IMG/VR virus record: IMGVR_UViG_3300042323_000377
Coordinates: 1 to 28,072 of that record
Strand: one strand, 5' to 3'
DNA from: a virus
Taxonomy: Duplodnaviria; Caudoviricetes
Length of the DNA stretch: 28,072 bases
The stretch's first letter is position 1. Each line of letters begins with the position of its first letter. Positions 334 to 27,874 of this stretch are shown in pieces. The translations under genes and the position numbers were made by a program. The notes under the pieces are model-generated. The model was not told the origin of the DNA. It made no database searches and worked only from the letters and a program-made list of their open reading frames with translations.

Positions 334-406
334 TGGGGGCGGCTGGATTTGAACCAGCGTTTCTTCCGTTATGAGCAGAGTGTTCTTACCTTTGAACTAC
401 ACCCCC
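334..406 (-). tRNA. tRNA with CAT anticodon (elongator Met or Ile2)
   Basis: Acceptor GGGGGTG/CGCCCCC, anticodon loop CTCATAA, T-loop GGTTCAAATCC; G1-C72 pair argues against initiator; ends ACCT (no full CCA). Confidence 0.9.
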
Positions 407-411
407 GTAAG

Positions 412-495
412 TGGTGCTGAGGGCGGGACTTGAACCCGCAAGCCGTTGGGCAACTGATTTTAAGTCAGTCGTGTATACCATTCCACCACTTCAGC
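412..495 (-). tRNA. tRNA-Leu(TAA)
   Basis: ACTGA-CTTAAAA-TCAGT anticodon arm, long variable arm, GGTTCAAGTCC, encoded CCA. Confidence 0.95.
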
Positions 496-498
496 AAA

Positions 499-569
499 TA
501 GTCTTGCTAGGACTTGAACCTAGACAGAGAGAACCAAAATCTCCCGTGCTACCATTACACCACAAGACT
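499..569 (-). tRNA. tRNA-Gln(TTG)
   Basis: Acceptor AGTCTTG/CAAGACT, GGAGA-TTTTGGT-TCTCT anticodon arm, GGTTCAAGTCC. Confidence 0.92.
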
Positions 570-574
570 GAGAA

Positions 575-646
575 TCGACCCGCTAGGAATCGAACCTAGA
601 TAACCCGCTTAGAAGGCGGGTGTTCTATCCGTTGAACTACGGGTCG
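575..646 (-). tRNA. tRNA-Arg(TCT)
   Basis: Acceptor CGACCCG/CGGGTCG, CCCGC-CTTCTAA-GCGGG anticodon arm, GGTTCGATTCC. Confidence 0.95.
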
Positions 647-701
647 TAAAACGACCACCCCAGAGAAACCATCGTAGAGAGGGCGGGGTGGTACTAAAGC
701 G

Positions 702-773
702 AGCCTTGAGTCGGACTTGAACCGACAACCCTCAGTTTACAAAACTGATGCACTACCATTGTGCTATCAAGGC
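702..773 (-). tRNA. tRNA-Thr(TGT)
   Basis: Acceptor GCCTTGA/TCAAGGC, TCAGT-TTTGTAA-ACTGA anticodon arm, GGTTCAAGTCC. Confidence 0.95.
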
Positions 774-1476: not shown

Positions 1477-1520
1477 AAACAAGAAAGCCCACCGAGGCGG
1501 GTTAGGCACAGGGTGGGCTT
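1477..1520 (-). terminator. Intrinsic terminator ending the leftward operon
   Basis: Stem AAGCCCACC/GGTGGGCTT followed by TCTTGTTT on the - strand. Confidence 0.65.
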
Positions 1521-2874: not shown

Positions 2875-2950
2875 AGGATTTTTGTAGTTAGGATTTGGTG
2901 ACGCTGGGGTCGGGCTGAGTTGTCAGCCCTTCCCCTTTGTCGGATTAGGA

Positions 2951-3814
2951 TTAGTTGTTCTTCTGGAGTTCCTTGACGAAGAGGTCGCTGATGCGACCCT
3001 TGCGAGCGTGGTCAGCCAGAACCATCGTGGCGTTGGTGGACAGGCGGGTAGCGAGTTCCACCTTCCTGCGGACACCATCGACCTCGTGCGTGGTGTGCTG
3101 AGTGATAGCGTTCCAGAGGTTGTAGACATTCCTCTGGCGGTCTTGCTCGTAAGTGGGCTTCTCCCAGATTTCACGAACCTTGTCAGCGACCCTGTCAGCG
3201 AGAACGCTACGCTTCACCAGACCATTCAGCAGTTCGTGACCTTCCTGCTGATTGAGTTTCGTGCGACTGAAGAGGTCGAGCGTGTCGTACTGCGATTGGA
3301 AGTTGCGGACAGCGACATCGACAGCGTTGGAGGCGAACTCGACATCCACGGAAGCCGTGTGCTTCCGCATCAAGTCGATACCGCCATCCATCGACCACGC
3401 TCCGTTACTGCACACGACCCGCAGGAGTCCCACGACAAGGCTGACCTTCATCGAGCCATCGAAGGAATTGCGAATCGAGACACGCATCTGGAAGTCATCC
3501 TTCTGCACCTTGAATCCGTGATTGGCGAAGGTGTAGTTGGCGTACATCCGAGAGCCGTCCTGCGTGACATCGAACTTGCGGGTGAACTTCATCCCCTTCG
3601 TGTCGAAGATGGACTCAGCCTTCTCGATGAGGTCTTGGTTCTGCACGATGGTGTAGGACTCCGTGACAGCCTTGAGGCACACGCCCGTGTCCTTGCGGAC
3701 ATTGCCGTAGAACGGGGTGGGCGTGCCATCGGGGAGGTGGAGACGCTCCTGCGTGACTTGGTAGAACGGGTTGTCCGTCACCTTGGTTTCGTTTTCTTCG
3801 ATTTGGATTTTCAT
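2951..3814 (-). CDS. DUF932/DUF945-like phage protein
   Basis: V..SY..VQN, NSFDGS, RVVCSNG, KHT and C-terminal YNLWNAIT...H motifs. Confidence 0.85.
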   Translation of the reverse strand: MKIQIEENETKVTDNPFYQVTQERLHLPDGTPTPFYGNVRKDTGVCLKAVTESYTIVQNQDLIEKAESIFDTKGMKFTRKFDVTQDGSRMYANYTFANHGFKVQKDDFQMRVSIRNSFDGSMKVSLVVGLLRVVCSNGAWSMDGGIDLMRKHTASVDVEFASNAVDVAVRNFQSQYDTLDLFSRTKLNQQEGHELLNGLVKRSVLADRVADKVREIWEKPTYEQDRQRNVYNLWNAITQHTTHEVDGVRRKVELATRLSTNATMVLADHARKGRISDLFVKELQKNN

Positions 3815-3869
3815 ATCTGTGTTTTGGTTTTGGGTTGGGGGGAATTGTAGTTAGAATTTGGATGCAGGA

Positions 3870-4175
3870 TTAGGCGAAGAGCGTTCCGTGCTTGTCGTGC
3901 GGAGCGTGAATTTCTCCGTCAGACTCCATCGCAACTTGCCACTTGGAATCCCTTTCGAGATACCAGCCTTTGGACTCAGCGTAGTCCTCGACCTTCCAGC
4001 GAGCCTCAGCGAGCAGTTCGTCCGTGTTGAAGTTGTAGTCGCAGGGCGGGTTCTCCCAGAGGTCGAAGAGGTTGCTGTAGTACGCTTGAATCCATTCGGA
4101 GCGTTGACCACGGAAGTCCAGCGAGGCGAACTGCCTCACACGGAATTCCTGTTTCATTTTGTCGGCGGTGTGCAT
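3870..4175 (-). CDS. Phage hypothetical protein (MHTADKMK..., 101 aa), first gene of the leftward operon
   Basis: ATG at 4175 preceded by an A/C-rich leader (ACCAAAAACCA twice). Confidence 0.75.
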   Translation of the reverse strand: MHTADKMKQEFRVRQFASLDFRGQRSEWIQAYYSNLFDLWENPPCDYNFNTDELLAEARWKVEDYAESKGWYLERDSKWQVAMESDGEIHAPHDKHGTLFA

Positions 4176-4223
4176 TGGTTTTTGGTATTTGGTTTTTGGT
4201 ATGGGTTTTGAATCTGTGACTGC

Positions 4224-4292
4224 GGACTCGTCAGCGTAGGCGTAACCTACGGACAAGGGGGTGGGATTTTCACCTACCCCCGTGTTTCGTCC
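4224..4292 (-). ncRNA. Hammerhead ribozyme, type II
   Basis: GGAC-GAAA-CACGGGGGTAGG-TGAAAAT-CCCACCCCCTT-GTC^-CGTAGG-TTACG-CCTACG-CTGACGA-GTCC: complete CUGANGA/GAAA/GUC core and three stems. Confidence 0.93.
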
Positions 4293-4570
4293 TTTGTTGA
4301 TTCACGAATCTAGAATCTCTTACCCGTAGGTTTCTAGGTTTCTGAATGTCTGCCATCGTGCGGGGAATATATCAGCCTAGCACACGCTGGATTGTCGTTT
4401 AGGAATTAATGCCGATGCCCTTCTGGGGCTGGGGCTTCCTACAGTAGAATTTCAATGAACCGAGTTCTGTATCGAATCTTTACGCATCTGGCTGGCGGGC
4501 GAGTTGCCCGCATCTTGTGCGACCATCCCGCAGGGCGGGAGGAGAGAACCGATTGACGAAGAACAGGACT

Positions 4571-4601
4571 CCAAGGTGGGACAGGTGTATTACCGATTCA
4601 A
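4571..4601 (-). promoter_or_regulatory. Putative leftward promoter with GTAATAC operator
   Basis: TTGAAT-cg-GTAATAC-...; -10 non-canonical (CACCTT at 17 nt). Confidence 0.45.
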
Positions 4602-4810
4602 GTTCTATTTTCAGATTTCTGCATTTTATTTCCAGAGCCTTCGCCCTTGGAGTGAACGCACCCGCCCGCATAGCAGAGAGCGTGCCAAGTCTCTTTACAG
4701 GATTGAGGTTTATTTGCTATTTAGACGCAGAATTTGCTTGTCTCACCTTATTGAGAATAGACCCCTTTTTATTGGGGTTTTCGTGTGTTTCTCAGTCTCA
4801 CATTCTTTGG

Positions 4811-5293
4811 GGTGTACAAGCCCTTTACAGGTAGGGGTGAAGGGGTAGATATACCCTTTGCACATACCCCCCTTAGAATCGAAGCCAGACCCCTTAGCGT
4901 TGATTTGACATCTTTTTTACAATTGGCTGGAATGATTCTATCCAGCCCGAATCCTGTTATCATTAGTCATCTACTTATCATTATATCTTTAGTTAGGATT
5001 ACAGGATTAGAGTCCGAATCCTACTTGACAGACCTATGATTAGAGATTCTACACGGGGCATTAGGATTGCTTATAGCAGTCTCTGACCCCCTATTTTGTG
5101 CTTGATTGAACGGATGTTCACTATCGTTTGCAAGTCGTTGATTTACAACGCTTTACAACTTCTTGCACAGTTGCCCTACAAGGCTCTTGCAAGGGTCAGC
5201 CTAGGGGTAGGTATAGGCTCTTGATACCCCCACCTTAGAATCGATTGTAGAGGCTCTTTGCATTTTTACATCTTATTTACAATTGTGTATAGG
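4811..5293 (+). repeat. Two imperfect ~115-bp repeats 360 bp apart (4811-4925, 5171-5285), each ending in a promoter-like element
   Basis: Shared ATACCCC..CCTTAGAATCGA and ACATCTTWTTTACAATTG blocks; TTGACA-17-TGGAAT and TTTACA-17-TATAGG. Confidence 0.7.
5131..5143 (-). promoter_or_regulatory. IHF-consensus site inside an imperfect palindrome
   Basis: AATCAACGACTTG matches WATCAANNNNTTR; context AAGTCGTTG-ATTTA-CAACGCTT. Confidence 0.5.
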
Positions 5294-5641
5294 GTCTTGG
5301 CACGAAGCCTGCTACCTGTTTTCTAATCACGGAATCACAGGTTAGGTTAACGGGATTAGGATTCTAAATCTAGATTCTACTGTGCTTTTATAATTCTATA
5401 ATAAACCACGGCTGGTTATTTATAATTCTATTATAATATTATAAACTGAGGTAAACTTATAAAGACCATTAGCGTTACTACTGCGTAAAGGTTCTTGATA
5501 AAAGCAGTTGAGCCTGTCGTAAAAAGTCTTTCCATCGTATGTGCAGGGTCTAAAAACCCTCACGCTCTTTCTCAGTCTACTTTCCCTAAACCCGCAATCG
5601 TGCGGGAGGGGGATACCAAAAAACAAAAACAAAAAACCGAT

Positions 5642-6102: not shown

Positions 6103-6131
6103 TTGACGAATGGTATTACAGTAGATTGATT
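6103..6131 (+). promoter_or_regulatory. Putative promoter with GTATTAC operator
   Basis: TTGACG-aatg-GTATTAC. Confidence 0.5.
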
Positions 6132-6158
6132 CCCTTTCTGTTCTTTCACATCCCGCAT

Positions 6159-6362
6159 ATGAAACTAAAATACATTAACACGGCTGGCGTTAAGAAGTTT
6201 TGCAAACAGGAATATGGTAAGCGTGTAAGCAAGGATTTCCTCGCTCAACTCGATTACTATCTTCAAAACAAACTTCGCTCCGCTTGCTCTGAACATAATG
6301 GTGGCAAGAAGACCTTGGATAACGCCCTCGCTGGCTATGTCCTTGGTCGCTCTGGTCGATAG
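6159..6362 (+). CDS. Histone-fold-like small basic protein (67 aa)
   Basis: YINTAGVKKFCK (a1), KRVSKDF (L1), amphipathic a2, GGKKTL (L2), resembling RVS and GRKT(I/V) of prokaryotic histones. Confidence 0.7.
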   Translation: MKLKYINTAGVKKFCKQEYGKRVSKDFLAQLDYYLQNKLRSACSEHNGGKKTLDNALAGYVLGRSGR

Positions 6363-18401: not shown

Positions 18402-18707
18402 TTATTTAGTCTGTTTAATAAATTTACGCTTCAGCCACTCAAAAATATCTGGGGCTAACGCACCAGCAGAGGAGTAGATGATGCCCTTGTACATAGCGTC
18501 CAGAGGGGCGTGGTTGATGGCGAAGTAAATCAGAGTACCAACGATAGCACCCGCCAGAGCCTTGCGTACCCAGATGATGGCTTGCCACTTCTCCTCAGTT
18601 ATGATGAGCCTAGCGACAGCACCTAACGCTCCTAGGACAGCAACTATCCAGCCACCCTTCTTGAAGTCTTCGGCTGTTTCTAGAATGCTAGGGTCTACAG
18701 GACTCAT
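18402..18707 (-). CDS. Holin-like membrane protein (101 aa)
   Basis: About 3 TM segments, basic C-terminus, near the spanin-like gene. Confidence 0.6.
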   Translation of the reverse strand: MSPVDPSILETAEDFKKGGWIVAVLGALGAVARLIITEEKWQAIIWVRKALAGAIVGTLIYFAINHAPLDAMYKGIIYSSAGALAPDIFEWLKRKFIKQTK

Positions 18708-21700
18708 TGCTTAGGCTCGTCCCTTTGGACTCTCCGCTTGGCTTGCTCTAGGTCGTTGTAGATGCCGACCATAGCCTTGTAGGGGTTGTAGACCTTGAAC
18801 TTATCGCCCTGCACCATGATGACATAGCCGACAGCGTTCTTGACCACAGAGCCAAGCGAGGTGCGTTCAGATTGCCAGTCACGCCAGCCTTCAGCGGGCT
18901 GATAATGTCTATCAGAGAATATCTTGCTCCAAGAGTGAACCCAAGGCTCATAGCCTTCCATTGTCTCATAAGAGCCATCCTGTTTCTGAATATCGATTAA
19001 AGGCTTTTTGAGTTTGTCGAAGTTTTCCTTTGTGGGCGGGAAATACTGACCCCTATCTGCATCAATTAACTTAGACTCTCCAAAGCCAAAGGTATTGACT
19101 TGAGCGTACATAGGAAGTGCTAAGTCGTTTTCAATTCTCTGAAGGAAGTCTTCAGCCCCTAAGAACCTCGCCCGTTCAGCCATTTCAGAGTAAAGAAGAT
19201 TAGAGTATCCCTTGCCCCTGTACTGTTCCCATACACGAACCGCAGGGTCAGAAAGCAACCACTTACCTCCGCTACCCTTCTTAACTTCGTAATCTATTCT
19301 GCCGATAAGTTTGTTTCCTTCCTTTAACTCAATAGAGCGTCTTCCATAATCATCGGTTCTCTTATCCCAGTTCTTCATGCTGAGTTTCAAACCTTTCGTA
19401 AGGATAGGGTTCTCCTCAGCATATCTGCCAATGAAGCCATTAGTCCATTGACGGCTATCTGTATCATAGGTTCTGTTGCCTTCACCCATCTCGTACTGAT
19501 TTGTGCTGACCTTTTTTGTGCTGATGGTCTTCTTCTTACCAGAGAGTCTGATGGGTTCGCCCTGCTCGCCTTCCGCTGGCATGAAAGATGTTCTGTCTTT
19601 ACCAGCCTCGTTGTTCTTGAACGCCTTGTTGACTTCACGCTTAAGAGCAAGAACAGCCCTTTCTGGATTTTCTAAATTCACATCATGTAAAGGATGGTTT
19701 ATTGCCTTTCCGTTTACTCTTATGTCTACGCCTAGCGTATGCTTTTCTTTGTTTTTAACGCTATTTTTAAGGATATCTAAGATAGCCTCATACTGTTTGT
19801 TTGTAGGAACAGAACCTATGTCTAAATAAGTGCGTCCGTCATCTGTGCCATAATCATTGTGGTCTATGCGGATAGCACCAGCCTCTTGCATTTTGCCAAT
19901 CTTGTCTTCTTCCCAGCCATACTCTTCCTTCATTTTTCTCTTAACCTCTGGAAGCATTACGGCTTCTCTATGGTCTAAGCCTCTTGAATTCTTGAAGTCA
20001 TCAAACTTTGTGGTGGGAATGTATTTGTCGTTTACTCTCTTGAACCCAGAACTTTGTGAGCGTCCAGAGAAGTCGAGCATTCTTGCGTCTGGCAATATAT
20101 AGCCAGCCTCATACGGACTGTTTGTAAGTCCAAACTTCTTAATGTTAAGTTCAAACAGTTTTCTAGATGCTTCTGGAAGAGCATCCCAAGTAGACTTCAT
20201 TCCCAGTTCCCTTGTCTTTTCCCAAGACTCAGAAGGCATATACCAAGCCTTTTCCTTCAAGTAAGAAGTGACATCTGTCTGCGTATCGCCATACCTATCC
20301 CTTCTTGTTCTTCCAATAAGAGTGTCATCTGGCTCTCCAATCCTAGTGTTTTCTTGGTCAATGATTCTTTTGCGAATCTTCTGAGGTCTTCCAGATTCAT
20401 CGACAATCATTCCGCTGAATTCTTTTACGCCAAGGGAGCGAAGACGCTCAACCATTTCAGAGTAAAGAAGATTCCCGTATCCTTCGCCTTCCCATCTAGG
20501 ATTTACTTTTACATATTCAACAGACGCATCAGTTCCATTGACTTCAACATTTATATATCCTACCTTAACTTCATTTGCAACTTCATCCTTTGGTTTAATA
20601 GTAAGCCTATATGTCTCTTCTCCAAATCTTCCTTTTTCAGTATCCTTGGTGAATATAATCTTTTTATATTTTATTGCTTTAGGATTTTCAGAAGCATAGC
20701 GACCAATAAATTTACCAGACATCTGCTCTGGCGTGTAAGTACGACCACCCTCAGCATCGCCCTCCGCTGGCATGAAGTTGGGACGATTTTCTCTGCCCGT
20801 ATCTTCTTCTGAAACTCTGAATTGATTAAGTCTTCCTTCTTCCTTGATTGGTGTCTGAACCCAAGCGTATTTAATGCCAAGGTCTTCATAGGCTTGAAGC
20901 CTGTGTCTTCCATTGGAAACACGAACTTGATTAACAGCACCTTGTCCTTCAATAAAAGTCTTTTCTGGGAATACCGACACGACTGGGGCTTCAGCCATCT
21001 CTCGGTTATTTTTTCTTTCCCAAGGTCTTTCTTGAATCCACTTAGTAGCATTAGCAAGGCTATTAGGCTTTTGATTCTTTACATCTCTTACTGTATTAGA
21101 AGGATTAGTTCTTTGGAATTCGTCATTAAACTTCTTAACATCAATAAGGACAAACTTATTTCCACTCCAAGGCTTTTGATGAGCCTCTAATGGAATTTCC
21201 GCTGGCTGATATGCAGTATCTCTATGCTCTCTTTCTCCTTCTGTATTGTAGCGTCTTCCATCCTTGTCAGAAATCTTACGCATCTGACCAGTCGCTCGCA
21301 TGAACGCATTGTATAAACCTTTTCTTGCGTCTCTAATGTCTTTCAGTTTTGCAAGGTATGTATATTGGTCGATGTTTTGTGCCTCTTGAACGGCTTGCTT
21401 TAATGTGATTTCTTTGTTCTGAAATCTGTCAACAATAGCACCACCCTTGCTTCCAAGTTTTAAGATAGCCTCAACAACATCATCGTTGCTTGCTTTTGTG
21501 AAATTCTCTATGTTGTTAAAGACATAATCTAATTCTGGAGTCATCATCTCTTGATGAGACTTGCCCGTCTTTAATCCGTATAGATATTCAGTTAACAGTT
21601 TATAAGCCTTGTTGCTGTTTGGTTCAAAATCAAAACCGCCTTTTTCACCCTCCGAAGGCATCATGTGCGTCTGTATCTTGCCGTCTAGGAAGTCTTGCTT

Positions 21701-24700
21701 GATGCGGTCATTGAGGACAAAGGTCATGCCTCTGTCGATAGCCTCAGCGGAAATACCAGAGTCTGTAGTAGACATTGAGCCGATTTCGCCACGGATACCA
21801 TTCTCACGAAGTTTATTAATTCTGTTGTAAGCATCCTTTTCGGCAGACTTTATCATTGCAACTTCACCGATAAGCGTTCTCAGTTTGTTATCGTTAAGAT
21901 TTTTAGCCTCATTTTGGATTTTTACACCAACGAATTCGTCAGACTCATGCACGGGCATTGCCATTAACTCAGCAAGTTTGTTGATGGTCGCAGGGTCTTC
22001 ACTACCCTTGACCTGTTCAAAGTGTTCAAGTACTGCCTTATTAGCATCGTGCAACTTGTTGGTAATCTCAGCCATCTGACCCTTGGCGGTATCAATGGTA
22101 GCGTCAGCCAACTTGTTAGTCTGCTTCATCTCAATCCCGTACTTGCGAAGCCAAGCACCCCAGATTTCTGGGATTAACTTGCCGTAGAGTCCCTGTCTGG
22201 CATCGCCTTTCATGTGCGAGACAGTAGGGCTGTCATCGGGGTGCGTTAGCGTAATCCTATCTAAGCCGTCACGGATAGCCTGTCTGATGATTCCCTTGAG
22301 TCCTGTGAGCGTCCAGTCCTTAGCGGCAGTAAGCGGCAAAGGAGTAGGCTCTTTTTGACTTAAACTTAATTCATGCAATTGAATCAACGACTCATTGTCT
22401 TGAATAGATTCAAGCATAATGTCTGGATTGTCTAAAGTATAATTAGTTATGTGTCCTTCATCTATAAGACTTTGAATTCCTTCTGTTCGGTAAAATTTCT
22501 GCCGTTCGACTTCAAACTTTTTTATTGTATTAAATTGATTTAACAATTCATCGCTAAGTCGTAACTTTTTCCAAACTTTAAAATGTTTGTCAAAAACTGA
22601 TTCTGTTTCTGCTTCAAGTCTATTTAAGAAATCGCTAAAACTTGTTGCTGTACCTATCATGGTAAACACATGGTCTAACCCTTCCTGTAAAACTTTCCTC
22701 GCATCTTGTCTTGACATAGCGGCATCATAACCTTGAGACGGGAATATTTCTTTTAACAATAATGTTATTTCAGAATTTAATTTTTCGCTATTCCATAACC
22801 CTGCTTTTATGTACGCAGTTTTTTGAGTCTCAAAACCTTCTCCATTGCTGTTTTGTACATAAATTCCTTCTTCTCTTGCTTTGTTATAAAGTGTTTTTTG
22901 AGTTCTTACATTTCTTCTAACTATAAATTCTCTATCTGGAGTAAGTCTTCCAGATACTTTTCTTTTATCCGTATTATTAGCCTGTACTTCTTCGATGAAC
23001 AGGTGTCTGTTGCCGTCAGCGTCAATACGCTCCGTGGTTCGGAAGTGAACAATAGTATCTTCTCCGTAGTGACCACGGATGCCGTGAGCGTACTCTGGAT
23101 TGATTCTAATTGCCGTCTGCTTGTAGTTATCCTTAGCACCGCCAAGGGTGAACCTAGAGGTGTCCATTCCACTTCTTTCCTTAGCACCCTCTTCAATAGT
23201 TACCTTGATTTCCTTGGACTTAGCGAAGTCTAGGATTTCGGTCATGTCTAACTTAGGCTGAGTAACGCCCTGTGCCATGTCAATCCGTGTGCCATCTTCA
23301 AGGAATCTAGGCGTAGTGGTCTTCTGAATCTTGGACTTCAACAAGTCAACAAGACCAATCTCCGTGGCTTCTTGGAACATTCTGCTACCCTGCGAGCCGT
23401 ACACGACTAACTTCTTGAGAAGACCTTGGGCTGTGAGGTTAGGGTAGTCTTGGAAAATTTGGGCAAGTCTGGGGTGCAGGGCAGACTTGATTTCCATCGG
23501 ATACATTGCGTCATATTCGTGATGTGATAAATTTGTTAACTTATCTAACAAATAAGAAACTTTTAAATCTTTTGCATAATGAGGTATTCCTATGTCAATA
23601 TCACCTAAAGAAGAAACATCTGGTTTAATTTTAACTTGTTCTAAAATAGAACTTACATTTTCATTGCGTAATGCCTTTATTAAACCTTCTTTTTTAACTA
23701 CTTCTAAAGCATCTTTAGATGGTCTTGAGTAATAATTGCTCGCAGACTCTGCTTGATTCTCTTTTGAGTTTATATCGTTTATTTGTTTTTCTAATGCTTC
23801 TATTACACTTTGTTCAATTTTATTATCATCTAAAATCTTTTGAACACGCTTATCTTTGTATCCAACTCTTGACGGAGGAATTTCAGTCGGAGGCACAGCG
23901 GTGTCTTTACCCTCAACGCTCTTGTCGAAGGATTCATTGAAGTGTTTTTGAGCCGCACGACCAGCGTCAGCGATTGTATCGAATTGACCAAGCGACTTGC
24001 CCTCTGGGTCGAACACCTTGAACTTTTCGCCAGCCTGTTTGCTGATGTTATAGCCCGTAGCGTGACGGATTATCTTGCCACCAGAGGGAGTAGTCTCCTG
24101 CCTCATCTCATCTGGCATGAAGTTGCGGGTGAGGTCTAGGTGGGCGTTGTTGTGGTTGTAGTCCACACGCTCCCTGCCAGCGGTACGCATAGCCACGATG
24201 CCGTCATTGCTGAAGGTCGTAACGCTGTGTCGGATGCCGACAGGAATCTCAGCGATGGGCTTGTTGATGTACGGGAGGTCAGAACCCTTGTGGAATCCAA
24301 GCATCTGGTGCAGGGCATCTCTACGCTGACCGCCTAAGCCGTCACCCCTGTCAAGAAGACGGAAGGAGGGCTTGCGGTTAGGGTCTCCAGACGGAAGGGA
24401 GGCGTTGCTGAGGTAGGCGTAGAAGTCAGCCTCCATGCTTGTTCTGTCTCCGTTCCAGAGGTCACGGACTTGAGGGTCACGCCAGACCTCGTTGCCTCTA
24501 GCCTCGATGACTCTGAGGTCAAGGGTGTCAAAGTTAGCGAAGGTCGTACCATCGGCTTTGACCTTGAAGTTCACATCAAGAAGTACAGCCCGTCTGTTCT
24601 TGAACGGCACAGCCGCACCATAGACACGCTCGTTGCCGTCACCAATGTGGGCAGAGTAACCAAGGTAGCCGAACTCGACCACATTAGAACCCTTGCCTTC

Positions 24701-27700
24701 AAGGATGTTATAGGCGGCTGTAAGTCTGTCGAACCACGCTCTCTGGAGGTAACCTGTACCCACAAGGGCGTTCATCTGAGCCGTGTTGGGCTTGCCAGAC
24801 CAGTTGCCGTCACCATCCCTACGCATACCGCCCCTGTGGTCAGCATCAGAAAGGGAGTCTAGAACCTTGAACATCTCCTTGCCCTGTCGGATTTCTTCGG
24901 CTGTGTATCTGCGGAGTTTAGGCTTCTTTAAGTTGCCAGCCTTGTCGATGGTCTCAAAGCCCTGTCCACGCAGACCATGCGTCTGGATGAACTGCTTACG
25001 GGCATCGGGGGAGAGGTTGCTGATGTCGAACTTGCCACCCTTGTTGATGTTAGACTGCATCCGAATCATGTCCTGCATCAAGAGGTCTAGGGCTGTTACC
25101 TTGGCTCTCTTGCCGTCTTTGCCAAATCCTCTGGACAGGGCATATCCCTCGATGTTGTCGAAATTGACGGACGGGTTGTTCTTGCCAATCTTAGCCTTCC
25201 AGAAGTCGAGGAACGACTCCTTGGAGGTCTCAAAGACGGCTCTGAGTCCGCTGTATTCGCCACCTCTGAACAGGAAGTCCACGGGCTTGTCCATCACGAA
25301 CTTGGCAAAATAGTAAGCACCGAACTCCTCAACTAGATGCTCAAGCGGTGTCTGGGTAGTGTCAGCGACACGATTAGGGTCGTTACGCTTCTTGTATTCC
25401 TCGATAGAACCCTTGAGTTCATCAATCTTGCGTTTACGGAATTCTTCGCTTTGGTTTCTATGGACGCTGTTGATATAGCCTTCCATGAACTTCTGGAGTT
25501 GGGTCGGGTCAACGACAGCCTTCTCAAGCATCTTGCCAGTCTGAGGGTCAAATGTGCCGACAAGTTTCTGGATGAGTCTGTCGGAGTAGTCCTTAGCGAA
25601 CACAGAGTCTCTCATCACGGAGTGGAAGAGTTCGTGGGGCATCGACTCACGATTGCCCTTAGCCATGAACTTATCTAGGTTGATGTAGATTTCAGTCTGA
25701 CCAGTAGAGTTCCTACGCTTAGTCCAACCAGCGGAAGCGTCAAACGATTGAAGCGTCTCTTCGACATCCATGTTGCGAGACTTTCTGATTGTGCCATCCT
25801 TGTCGATGTATCCGTCCGCTTGGAGTTTCTCCTTAAGCATCTGACCTCTGCGGGTCAGTTTCTTGTCGGAGCGTGTCTCAGCCTTGAGGGTCTCAGCAAT
25901 CTTACCAGAGACGAGATTAGCGTTCTTCTGGTTAAGGGTGTTAATCATCTCAGCCAATCTTTCGGCATAGGCGAGGTCACCGAAGTGAGCGTTTACCTGT
26001 CTGCCCTTGAGGGACTTGATGAAATCGGGGTTGCTGTTTTCCTTAATCTGCTTGAGCAGGACAGCCTTGGCGTTGTCATCCAGACGCTCCCAGACGGGCT
26101 TCAGTTTCTTGTATCTGGCTTCGGTTGTGATAGCCTTCTCAAAGCCAGCAGGGTCTCCAGCGAAGTTGCCTCCGTTGTCTCTGAGGATGCCGAGGACATC
26201 AGCGATGGTTCTTCTGTCTCCGATTTCGGGGAAGATTCTGGACTTCTCTCTGAGTTTGCCCGTGCTGGGGTCAATTCCTTGGCTAGTTAACGCTTCAGCG
26301 TAACCTTTCTCGTTAAACGCCTTGATGACCGCATCGGGGTTCACGACATCCAGACCAGCGATGATACCATCAATCTGGGCTTGGAATCGTCTATCTCCAG
26401 TAGCCTCAGCCGCAATAGCCATAGCCTCAAGAGCCACATGGTTTTCATTGCCAGCGTCCTTGAGTCCTTCGATGACCAACTTACGCTGGATGGCAATCTG
26501 CTCCATCTTCGTGTTGCCTGTGATGTCAGAGGTAAGCCTGCCAGCACCAGCACCGACAGCACCGAGTGCCATGCCAGAGCCGATACCGCCAGCCATGCCT
26601 TCTTCACCGCCAGCAAGATAACCTAGACCGCCACCGATAGCCGCACCTTGAAAAGCACCAGAGGTAATTTCATCGGCATAGGCGAAGAACGGGTCAACAG
26701 CCTCAATAATCTTAAGCAGTCCTTGGGCGTGTTTAGAGAGAACGATGCCTTGTTTCTTGGTGTCTCTAAGAGCCTGTCCAGCATAGCCAAGAACGCCACG
26801 ACCTGTGTTCTTCTGCTTTTGCATCTGCTCACCAAACATACTGATAGCCTCACCAACGCCACGGGCGGTAGTAGAGCCGACCATCGCACCAGCGACATCC
26901 CCGACAATAGGAAGGGGAATTGTAGCACCTGTCATAGCCGCAGTCGCAGAAGTCCATCCGTACATCTGTGCGGTTGTCTTGACCTCAGCGGCAGAGATAC
27001 CAGATACAGTCTCGAAAGCCTTGGCACTACGCTCTAAGCCATAATCAATCGTATTTCTGACGGCAGTACCCATGAACTCAATGGGAGCACCAACGCCCCA
27101 CTTGAGAACACCACCCATAATGCCACGCTTGATAGCCGCAGTACGGGCAGAAGCCATAGCCAACTTCTCGCCCATGCCAATCATCGTAGCACCCTTAGCC
27201 GCAATCCCACCGAACGGGATAAACAGGGTAGGGTCAGCGATGTAGGACATCACCTGTGTCATCTCTGGGTTGATGACATCTTTGTCCATGACAAGGGTAT
27301 CTTGACCAGTCATCAGACGCATCGAATGCAGATTGAAGGCTTGAGCCTCCATGAACTGCTGGTACTCAGCCGCCTCGTCATCGCCATTGGCTAACAAGGC
27401 GTTCTTCATTCGGAAGAATACGCTAGTAGGGTCGGCAGACTGAGCCGCCATTCCATAGAGGTTTCTTGTGCCTTGGGCAAACGCCTCGATTACAGAGGGC
27501 GTAAGTTTCTTCATCGAGTCTACGGGCTTGTCATAGATAGACCCAGCCGCCTTAAAAATCTCGTCAAATACTGTGCTAGCCGCCTCGCCAATCGTGCCGA
27601 TGACATCTGTTTCCTTAGATTTTTGATGAGCCTTGAACAGTCTGTATTGGTCTAATGTCATGTCCATCAGTTCGCCATTGGCGTTCTTCTGAGCCATTGC

Positions 27701-27874
27701 TCTTGCTACTTCCTCACCAGTAGGAGGGGCTGTAATATACTTTAACGCCTCTTCCCTTTCGTCCGCAGGAAGGCTATCTATGATGCTTTCGATGCTGGGA
27801 GGTGCATCAGATGCAGTTCCAGATTGCCCTCCAAGGGAAATATACTGCTTGGGGGATTCGTAAAGTTCAGCCAT
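18704..27874 (-). CDS. Giant (3056 aa) polyvalent, probably virion-internal/ejected protein: zincin HExxH, ParB-like and two GNAT modules
   Basis: Gly/Ala-rich hydrophobic N-region; HELFH (aa 747-751) plus EEFGAYY (aa 849); NGRHR; EGEGYG/RGKGYS..LLYSEM; repeated linker. Confidence 0.9.
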   Translation of the reverse strand: MAELYESPKQYISLGGQSGTASDAPPSIESIIDSLPADEREEALKYITAPPTGEEVARAMAQKNANGELMDMTLDQYRLFKAHQKSKETDVIGTIGEAASTVFDEIFKAAGSIYDKPVDSMKKLTPSVIEAFAQGTRNLYGMAAQSADPTSVFFRMKNALLANGDDEAAEYQQFMEAQAFNLHSMRLMTGQDTLVMDKDVINPEMTQVMSYIADPTLFIPFGGIAAKGATMIGMGEKLAMASARTAAIKRGIMGGVLKWGVGAPIEFMGTAVRNTIDYGLERSAKAFETVSGISAAEVKTTAQMYGWTSATAAMTGATIPLPIVGDVAGAMVGSTTARGVGEAISMFGEQMQKQKNTGRGVLGYAGQALRDTKKQGIVLSKHAQGLLKIIEAVDPFFAYADEITSGAFQGAAIGGGLGYLAGGEEGMAGGIGSGMALGAVGAGAGRLTSDITGNTKMEQIAIQRKLVIEGLKDAGNENHVALEAMAIAAEATGDRRFQAQIDGIIAGLDVVNPDAVIKAFNEKGYAEALTSQGIDPSTGKLREKSRIFPEIGDRRTIADVLGILRDNGGNFAGDPAGFEKAITTEARYKKLKPVWERLDDNAKAVLLKQIKENSNPDFIKSLKGRQVNAHFGDLAYAERLAEMINTLNQKNANLVSGKIAETLKAETRSDKKLTRRGQMLKEKLQADGYIDKDGTIRKSRNMDVEETLQSFDASAGWTKRRNSTGQTEIYINLDKFMAKGNRESMPHELFHSVMRDSVFAKDYSDRLIQKLVGTFDPQTGKMLEKAVVDPTQLQKFMEGYINSVHRNQSEEFRKRKIDELKGSIEEYKKRNDPNRVADTTQTPLEHLVEEFGAYYFAKFVMDKPVDFLFRGGEYSGLRAVFETSKESFLDFWKAKIGKNNPSVNFDNIEGYALSRGFGKDGKRAKVTALDLLMQDMIRMQSNINKGGKFDISNLSPDARKQFIQTHGLRGQGFETIDKAGNLKKPKLRRYTAEEIRQGKEMFKVLDSLSDADHRGGMRRDGDGNWSGKPNTAQMNALVGTGYLQRAWFDRLTAAYNILEGKGSNVVEFGYLGYSAHIGDGNERVYGAAVPFKNRRAVLLDVNFKVKADGTTFANFDTLDLRVIEARGNEVWRDPQVRDLWNGDRTSMEADFYAYLSNASLPSGDPNRKPSFRLLDRGDGLGGQRRDALHQMLGFHKGSDLPYINKPIAEIPVGIRHSVTTFSNDGIVAMRTAGRERVDYNHNNAHLDLTRNFMPDEMRQETTPSGGKIIRHATGYNISKQAGEKFKVFDPEGKSLGQFDTIADAGRAAQKHFNESFDKSVEGKDTAVPPTEIPPSRVGYKDKRVQKILDDNKIEQSVIEALEKQINDINSKENQAESASNYYSRPSKDALEVVKKEGLIKALRNENVSSILEQVKIKPDVSSLGDIDIGIPHYAKDLKVSYLLDKLTNLSHHEYDAMYPMEIKSALHPRLAQIFQDYPNLTAQGLLKKLVVYGSQGSRMFQEATEIGLVDLLKSKIQKTTTPRFLEDGTRIDMAQGVTQPKLDMTEILDFAKSKEIKVTIEEGAKERSGMDTSRFTLGGAKDNYKQTAIRINPEYAHGIRGHYGEDTIVHFRTTERIDADGNRHLFIEEVQANNTDKRKVSGRLTPDREFIVRRNVRTQKTLYNKAREEGIYVQNSNGEGFETQKTAYIKAGLWNSEKLNSEITLLLKEIFPSQGYDAAMSRQDARKVLQEGLDHVFTMIGTATSFSDFLNRLEAETESVFDKHFKVWKKLRLSDELLNQFNTIKKFEVERQKFYRTEGIQSLIDEGHITNYTLDNPDIMLESIQDNESLIQLHELSLSQKEPTPLPLTAAKDWTLTGLKGIIRQAIRDGLDRITLTHPDDSPTVSHMKGDARQGLYGKLIPEIWGAWLRKYGIEMKQTNKLADATIDTAKGQMAEITNKLHDANKAVLEHFEQVKGSEDPATINKLAELMAMPVHESDEFVGVKIQNEAKNLNDNKLRTLIGEVAMIKSAEKDAYNRINKLRENGIRGEIGSMSTTDSGISAEAIDRGMTFVLNDRIKQDFLDGKIQTHMMPSEGEKGGFDFEPNSNKAYKLLTEYLYGLKTGKSHQEMMTPELDYVFNNIENFTKASNDDVVEAILKLGSKGGAIVDRFQNKEITLKQAVQEAQNIDQYTYLAKLKDIRDARKGLYNAFMRATGQMRKISDKDGRRYNTEGEREHRDTAYQPAEIPLEAHQKPWSGNKFVLIDVKKFNDEFQRTNPSNTVRDVKNQKPNSLANATKWIQERPWERKNNREMAEAPVVSVFPEKTFIEGQGAVNQVRVSNGRHRLQAYEDLGIKYAWVQTPIKEEGRLNQFRVSEEDTGRENRPNFMPAEGDAEGGRTYTPEQMSGKFIGRYASENPKAIKYKKIIFTKDTEKGRFGEETYRLTIKPKDEVANEVKVGYINVEVNGTDASVEYVKVNPRWEGEGYGNLLYSEMVERLRSLGVKEFSGMIVDESGRPQKIRKRIIDQENTRIGEPDDTLIGRTRRDRYGDTQTDVTSYLKEKAWYMPSESWEKTRELGMKSTWDALPEASRKLFELNIKKFGLTNSPYEAGYILPDARMLDFSGRSQSSGFKRVNDKYIPTTKFDDFKNSRGLDHREAVMLPEVKRKMKEEYGWEEDKIGKMQEAGAIRIDHNDYGTDDGRTYLDIGSVPTNKQYEAILDILKNSVKNKEKHTLGVDIRVNGKAINHPLHDVNLENPERAVLALKREVNKAFKNNEAGKDRTSFMPAEGEQGEPIRLSGKKKTISTKKVSTNQYEMGEGNRTYDTDSRQWTNGFIGRYAEENPILTKGLKLSMKNWDKRTDDYGRRSIELKEGNKLIGRIDYEVKKGSGGKWLLSDPAVRVWEQYRGKGYSNLLYSEMAERARFLGAEDFLQRIENDLALPMYAQVNTFGFGESKLIDADRGQYFPPTKENFDKLKKPLIDIQKQDGSYETMEGYEPWVHSWSKIFSDRHYQPAEGWRDWQSERTSLGSVVKNAVGYVIMVQGDKFKVYNPYKAMVGIYNDLEQAKRRVQRDEPKQ

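Follow-up and report, generated by a model that had tools for sequence, protein, structure and literature searches.

The window analysed here is the whole 28,072-nt stretch of the 28-kb virus record IMGVR_UViG_3300042323_000377, a member of the Caudoviricetes with a completeness of about 67%, and its twin is a 43-kb record with terminal repeats that is identical across the 10 kb compared. A gene-poor gap (~4180–5640) parts a leftward operon from a rightward region that encodes endonuclease VII, exonuclease VIII, O-like, DnaC-like and Erf genes. The leftward operon opens with an ORF of 101 aa (3870–4175, minus strand), which has no family assignment and is missing from this slot in most relatives, followed by a DUF932 gene (2951–3814, minus strand), in relatives the usual first gene behind the ribozyme described below, and by four small ORFs, after which a consensus scan placed a terminator-like hairpin (1488–1501, minus strand). 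The DUF932 alleles of the window and of the related loci L001, L010 and L020 are only 38–43% identical behind near-identical leaders, a pattern pointing to gene exchange at the DUF932 slot. An A-rich block of ~25 nt is repeated, one copy before each small gene of the leftward operon (1963–2913 and 3845–3868), and six starts in this operon lack a Shine-Dalgarno-like run. In many relatives an apparent three-way junction, recognized by eye, separates the ribozyme from the start codon of DUF932 (L001:2785–2845, L010:510–560 and L022:3880–3925); it is absent from the window, L027, L028 and L030.

No host and no cultured relative were found. Scans of genome contigs for DUF932 and for the ribozyme returned no match, no usable host name emerged from two protein searches, and a search of a phage collection produced nothing beyond a terminase matching at 33% and a single distant DUF932. 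Elsewhere in the window, five tRNA genes are present at 334–773 (minus strand), and an AT-rich repeat is common to 1142–1314, before the tRNA cluster, and to 5383–5446, between the rightward sigma-54-type motif and the rightward leader; both could be regulator or origin sites. A protein of 3056 aa (18704–27874, minus strand) contains a GNAT-like stretch near residues 2435–2486 and has no PHROG match. The basic 67-aa protein at 6159–6362 (plus strand) is possibly a phage histone: its nearest Atlas clusters are unnamed viral proteins (0.93–0.94) and its nearest named cluster is histone-like (score 0.88), with PF00808 on 18% of the members, which can be taken as a lead only.

At the head of the leftward operon, descriptor and comparative searches place a type II hammerhead ribozyme on the minus strand (4224–4292). 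Hammerheads share the consensus CUGANGA plus GAAA at a three-way junction, and both elements are present here, with an NUH triplet before stem I. Reading along the minus strand, the two strands of stem II, GGAC (4292–4289) and GUCC (4227–4224), enclose GAAA (4288–4285), a stem III hairpin that runs to 4253, the GUC triplet (4254–4252), stem I (CGUAGG 4251–4246 with CCUACG 4240–4235, loop UUACG) and CUGACGA (4234–4228); stem II is open while loops cap stems I and III, which is the type II topology. All of the core elements that the preliminary description had assigned to this strand were recovered in place, and the type II descriptor, which matches nothing in 300 dinucleotide shuffles, has a single match in the window. 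A stricter descriptor that demanded three unbroken stem III pairs missed the real site and likewise found nothing in the shuffles. The cut is predicted between 4252 and 4251, and with the first ATG at 4175 the distance of 76 nt proposed earlier is borne out. The stem I hairpin (4235–4251, minus strand), seen in folds and in relatives, would form the 5′ end of the cut mRNA. Taken together, the sequence and the comparison with relatives are consistent with a type II hammerhead heading the leftward early operon, a cut at this site, a 5′-OH hairpin end and the release of an upstream RNA.

The Rfam Hammerhead_II model (RF02276), put forward with the preliminary description as a check on the assignment, gave no match at the site at either gathering or E-value thresholds. 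Two relatives reach 23.1 and 20.2 bits, and the model stays below its cut-off of 37 bits on all three genomes of the group that were scored. Across the window and 20 related loci Rfam returned tRNAs only, and weak tpke11, U6 and RNase P scores were dismissed as chance. The ribozyme class itself is known. Bacteria and prophages commonly carry type II hammerheads, of 18 consensus hammerheads assayed 14 cut in vitro and four did not, and the early polycistronic RNA of the haloviruses HF1 and HF2 has its mapped 5′ end ≤3 nt from a hammerhead cut, such that hammerheads heading early phage transcripts are already published (PMC3088659). For most self-cleaving ribozymes of bacteria and phages, the biological role is described as open (PMC6765202). 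In the literature searched, PMC10250234 included, no report of a hammerhead ending a boxA-like phage leader was found, and no publication was found that links DUF932 to a ribozyme, a link that may be in print in the gene-association tables of ribozyme surveys. The less ordinary part of the locus is the fixed coupling of the hammerhead to interchangeable structured leaders.

Pattern and DUF932 scans provided 82 loci, from which 14 repeat contigs (one of them identical to the window) and one chance match (L013, a 16-mer) were removed, leaving 67 loci and the window to be scanned for the ribozyme. It was located by descriptor in 23 loci, and inspection by eye added a locus whose stem I is bulged and another with a U4C core, for a total of 25 loci (23 distinct), and it occupies the same slot in all of them. 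Twenty-four loci have GUC as the triplet and one has GUA, and CUGANGA is kept in 24, the exception being the natural U4C variant, which has a longer stem I (L045:3790–3855). The 5′ strand of stem I occurs in nine versions among the 25 loci. Pairing across the relatives amounts to 97.8% for stem I, 97.8% for stem II and 88% for stem III, and both-sided changes affect four of the six stem I pairs and two of the four stem II pairs; the shuffles used for covariation can be beaten by relatedness alone, and sliding the partner strands cuts pairing to 41–51%. The A-U pair that opens stem III and a C-G pair are kept in 23/23 and loop I opens with U in 22/25. A model built from the ribozyme loci has one match per genome in each of five near-complete genomes, and every one of the 22 loci that keep the leftward sigma-54-type motif in the slot also carries the ribozyme. 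The model found no match in a further 45 loci, which are for the most part DUF932 neighbourhoods at greater distance and in many cases short; two loci with a readable operon head and no ribozyme (L037 and L041) have a short leader. Different first genes and leaders of 64–275 nt flank the same ribozyme, and the distance from cut to ATG is 67–114 nt in 18 of the 25 loci (the seven left out have an ATG inside the core).

The preliminary description had also proposed that loop I pairs with an upstream CGUGA (4306–4302) as a pseudoknot. The five pairs can be drawn in the window, but the pairing fares poorly among relatives: all five pairs form in four of the 23 distinct loci and no more than three in the other 19, one of which has the same loop I and lacks the CGUGA partner, and the proposed pseudoknot cells are 37% and 65% paired compared to 97.8% for stems I and II. 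The pairing is also on the wrong side, as the published type II pseudoknot engages the 3′ tail (PMC3088659). Between loop I and the 3′ tail, the best unbroken pairing in relatives is 2–4 bp, with no register in common. A possible distal extension of stem II, in which 4299–4304 pairs with 4209–4214 (both minus strand) across an internal loop, has its 5′ strand overlapping the proposed pseudoknot strand. The extension is present in many loci and weak in several, with cognate pairs outscoring 4808 of 5000 permutations (192 were better), and its probability is 0.69–0.88 in short folds and 0.01–0.02 with the whole leader. A likely substitute is a loop-to-bulge contact from a loop I uridine to adenosines beside stem II, and the adenosines 5′ of stem II are kept across relatives; this contact, and not the proposed pseudoknot, probably holds the active fold. 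Nearest-neighbour folding, in programs that leave out the core and tertiary contacts, places the hammerhead fold 3–6 kcal/mol higher than the minimum, which speaks against easy folding, and the probability of stem II comes to 0.01–0.23, low because the 5′ strand of stem II can pair with the GUC region.

Upstream of the ribozyme, a motif scan with the −24/−12 consensus of sigma-54 promoters identified one motif facing the leader (4672–4687, minus strand) and a second, divergent one (5298–5313, plus strand), which bound the intergenic gap and both face outward. Two such motifs in the window compare with 0.06 expected, and one of 100 shuffles reached two. An IHF-like match is present at 5143. A sigma-70-like promoter candidate (4573–4614, minus strand) consists of an A-tract, TTGAAT at 4601–4596 and a weak −10 near 4578–4573; the consensus promoter scan of the window missed it and the −10 is poor, and the A-tract with the −35-like hexamer recurs in 22/22 loci, 57–97 nt below the sigma-54-type motif. 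The conserved structured non-coding leader that follows (4293–4566, minus strand; its start inferred from the promoter-like motif) belongs to type A, about 275 nt in length, and comprises a 5′ multibranch domain to about 4464 and a second domain thereafter. Type A leaders have 93% column identity over 10 loci, a run of >30 invariant bases and a compensatory change in six of 82 predicted pairs. At least four leader types can be distinguished, of about 275 nt (type A), about 195 nt (the second type) and 64–154 nt (the others), the shortest of which (64–68 nt) hold a hairpin, a boxA-like motif and little else. A 50-codon stop-free stretch ends at stem II in only 3 of 22 leaders, and a leader peptide was rejected because the leaders have no ORF in common. 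Readings of the leader as a permuted RNase P or as a Cas12a repeat were likewise rejected, as the pairings do not fit. New regulatory or anti-defence RNAs may be represented among these leaders.

Between the two leader domains lies the boxA-like 11-mer GUUCAUUGAAA (4450–4460, minus strand), with one mismatch, inside the U-run, to an 11-mer that was assembled from two published consensuses (PMC13753749) after the phage motif had been noticed and that may not be the boxA of the host. Fifteen of 22 left leaders, nine of which are near-identical type A, match it with at most one mismatch and the other seven have 2–4, while perfect copies occur in none of the 22 left leaders and in 7 of 14 right leaders; in the window, the left leader has one mismatch and the right leader two. 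In the leaders the 11-mer is always 3′ of a 5′ hairpin or domain. Six sites with at most one mismatch exist window-wide, and a third 11-mer (6140–6150, plus strand, one mismatch) follows a promoter-like site near 6103 and has no hairpin. The leader of the rightward operon (5534–5629, plus strand) is built from a hairpin, a boxA-like 11-mer (5564–5574) and a covarying bulged hairpin (5584–5611), and is without a ribozyme. An unrecorded leader motif, in which a boxA-like 11-mer, a ~10-nt spacer and a strongly covarying bulged hairpin follow one another ahead of the first rightward gene, is repeated in relatives (window 5534–5629 (+); L021:2262–2370, L030:2137–2232, L020:1667–1773 (−)), and three relatives have a second copy behind the next promoter. 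The bulged hairpin with a CAAUC loop, which covaries strongly in right leaders, is also found in nine left leaders of relatives and not in the left leader of the window; a model of the right leader found nothing significant among left leaders (best E 2.6). The idea that the loop CAAUCGAA is antisense to the T-loops of tRNAs was set aside, since the loops of right leaders are variable.

A wider survey with two patterns for this compact type II hammerhead build retrieved 128 viral loci (L087–L214), two of which share one 87-kb contig, in 43 flank clusters; in 126 loci, stem I has ≥4 bp without a break. Stem II adjoins (≤12 nt) the end of an ORF of ≥50 codons in 36 of the 43 clusters, compared to 6.5% at random sites, 8.6% at other AAGG and 15.7% at other TAAGG, and an ORF start lies ≤45 nt away in 26 of the 40 clusters with enough flank (control 12.7%), suggesting that cuts by this build normally fall between cistrons. 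In five of 41 clusters scanned the first ORF is DUF932, and stem I plus its loop measures 17 nt in 25/43. Judged by sequence, the upstream unit in the group of the window is a non-coding RNA, where other phages have the end of a gene.

Evidence for expression comes from assembled contigs in four on-record RNA libraries from four studies; 14 sequencing runs with a matching stretch are listed, each with a small share, and contigs from eight of them were aligned to the window. Contigs from all four libraries cover the leader (within 4303–4629). In two of the RNA studies they end at 4322, without a loose end, and two runs that are probably DNA continue to 4224. The RNA contig ends fall 50–70 nt short of the cut, at strain-variable positions and at depths of 2–9, and presence of the stretch was the criterion by which the RNA runs were selected. 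Upstream intergenic pieces occur as well in two of these runs, which leaves room for DNA carry-over. The four RNA runs have no coverage at the cut or over 2900–4215, which is uninformative with runs preselected, depth low and the downstream genes strain-variable, and the contig ends are at most a weak hint of a leader RNA.

The ribozyme of this phage group has an intact core, type II topology, covarying stems, a fixed position and a single copy per complete genome, and it is preceded by a non-coding, swappable leader. Transcription would start from the promoter motif at 4687 and/or 4601, and self-cleavage at 4252/4251 could occur soon after stem II is completed at 4224. The cut would split the leader from the early-operon mRNA, which would then begin with a 5′-OH stem I hairpin and carry an A-rich start region without a Shine-Dalgarno-like run. 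We consider it rather probable that a constitutive cut separates leader from mRNA as a natural insulator for the DUF932-led operon. Its purpose may be to give the operon the same protected 5′ end whatever the upstream leader and promoter, and to detach the region where ribosomes load from the folded leader and from whatever is bound to that leader. The synthetic insulator RiboJ raises transcript ~2-fold and protein two- to tenfold (PMC6206723). Against insulation stand the active fold above the predicted minimum, the failure of the Rfam models to score the site, the rightward operon with its structured leader lacking a ribozyme and the poor −10 of the downstream promoter. A pure insulator also leaves the 93% identity of the type A leader unexplained.

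Two further readings, which are not exclusive of insulation, give the leader a role of its own. The point of the cut may be a discrete, structured upstream RNA of ~315 nt (from the downstream promoter) or ~410 nt (from the sigma-54-type motif), with a 2′,3′-cyclic-phosphate end, whose function lies in trans, such as that of a decoy for an RNA-binding or defence protein of the host, and which is swapped between phages like the downstream genes. Such an RNA would fit a ribozyme build that parts two cistrons in 36/43 clusters and here has a non-coding upstream unit, as well as the >30-base invariant run and compensatory changes of type A and the existence of at least four leader types, and the RNA-library contigs that cover the leader and in two studies stop at 4322 add a weak hint. 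However, Rfam gave no family and no target was found, the contigs end 50–70 nt before the cut at depths of 2–9 with DNA carry-over possible, and leaders of 64–68 nt barely exceed a hairpin and a boxA-like motif. We hold a trans-acting RNA to be rather unlikely. Slightly less likely still is a nut- or rrn-like Nus-factor loading site composed of hairpin, boxA and second hairpin, in which the hammerhead replaces the RNase III site of lambda PL-nutL-N and the cut severs the tether, with the first gene translated while the polymerase stays modified. RNase III reportedly relieves the repression of lambda N. The motif behind this proposal has at most one mismatch in 15/22 left leaders and is perfect in 7/14 right leaders, always behind a hairpin or domain, with similar motifs behind the third promoter (6140) and in three relatives. 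In Bacillus subtilis, rrn leaders have a hairpin and then a NusB-binding boxA (PMC13753749), boxA-bound Nus complexes keep translation down across as much as 100 nt and lambda N is subject to repression by nutL (PMC5725501), and the activity of HK022 put is independent of the tether (PMC9378689). Conversely, the 11-mer was built post hoc from two consensuses, no left leader of 22 is perfect, the window mismatch falls in the U-run and 7/22 left leaders have 2–4 mismatches; the consensus scan shows no clear intra-operon terminator, a weak one at 2818–2799 being at chance level (nine found, 5.5 expected), and the right-leader model misses the left leaders (best E 2.6).

That the ribozyme is a regulated switch, turned on through the CGUGA pseudoknot or off through the upstream segment 4332–4324 (able to cover the cut site and stem I with 9 bp), is very improbable. 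Both pairings can be drawn in the window and the anti-helix reaches 0.45 in one of five folds, but it is at 0.02–0.03 in the other four, neither pairing covaries, 4332–4324 belongs to a UACG-loop hairpin, and both 4332–4324 and CGUGA are kept while stem I and loop I change completely. Least credible of all is an inactive or selfish relic without a role for the phage. The active fold is not the predicted minimum, and four of 18 published consensus hammerheads remained uncut (PMC3088659), yet the core is intact in 24/25 loci despite compensated rewriting of the stems, at a single fixed position.

The insulating ribozyme favoured here can be placed next to several described systems. It is like the type II hammerheads of Perreault et al. 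2011 (PMC3088659; RF02276) in topology, full core, NUH triplet, phage setting and likely mRNA processing, but it is without a conserved pseudoknot between loop I and the 3′ tail, remains under the cut-off of 37, and is present as a single copy and not as a cluster flanking genes. The HHphage ribozyme of HF1/HF2 likewise sits just before the first ORF of an early polycistronic transcript and defines its 5′ end (PMC3088659). It has a variant core 13 nt from the start codon and comes from an archaeal virus, whereas here the core is standard, the start codon is 76 nt away and the ribozyme follows a long conserved leader. RiboJ similarly cuts off a variable leader to leave a hairpin-capped mRNA (PMC6206723); it is engineered, while in this phage group the element is natural, cleavage is predicted and the leader to be removed is itself conserved and structured. 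The lambda PL leader (nutL, RNase III site, N) and the boxB-boxA leaders of rrn operons (PMC5725501, PMC13753749, PMC8632103) have the same order of promoter, hairpin, boxA-like motif, structured spacer, processing site and first gene, and a similar motif is again present in the divergent leader. They differ in that the putative processor here is a ribozyme, the left motif is degenerate and no N-like protein was identified. As in HK022, where putL and putR are two similar two-stem RNAs of ~70 nt behind PL and PR (PMC9378689), some relatives have two-hairpin RNAs behind both divergent early promoters. In this group, however, the left and right RNAs are not alike by the right-leader model, which misses the left leaders, there is no positive sequence match to put, and the left leader of the window is four times longer and lacks the hairpin shared by nine left leaders.

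Beyond insulation, a more tentative proposal, which we hold to be possible and on balance unlikely, treats the structured non-coding RNA as the first cistron of the early operon. The fixed hammerhead would mature a swappable small RNA, of at least four types, that either acts in trans against host defence or the transcription machinery or loads host Nus factors and is then cut loose, with the ribozyme replacing the RNase III step of lambda. The locus is a clean case in which to consider the role of such ribozymes, with one ribozyme per genome, a fixed slot and natural variants of every stem, and the swappable leaders upstream and swappable genes downstream add to its value as a test case. Across many phage groups the pseudoknot-free build marks borders between cistrons, in five of these groups before DUF932, and the first-cistron proposal, if true, would provide a concrete function for orphan phage hammerheads.
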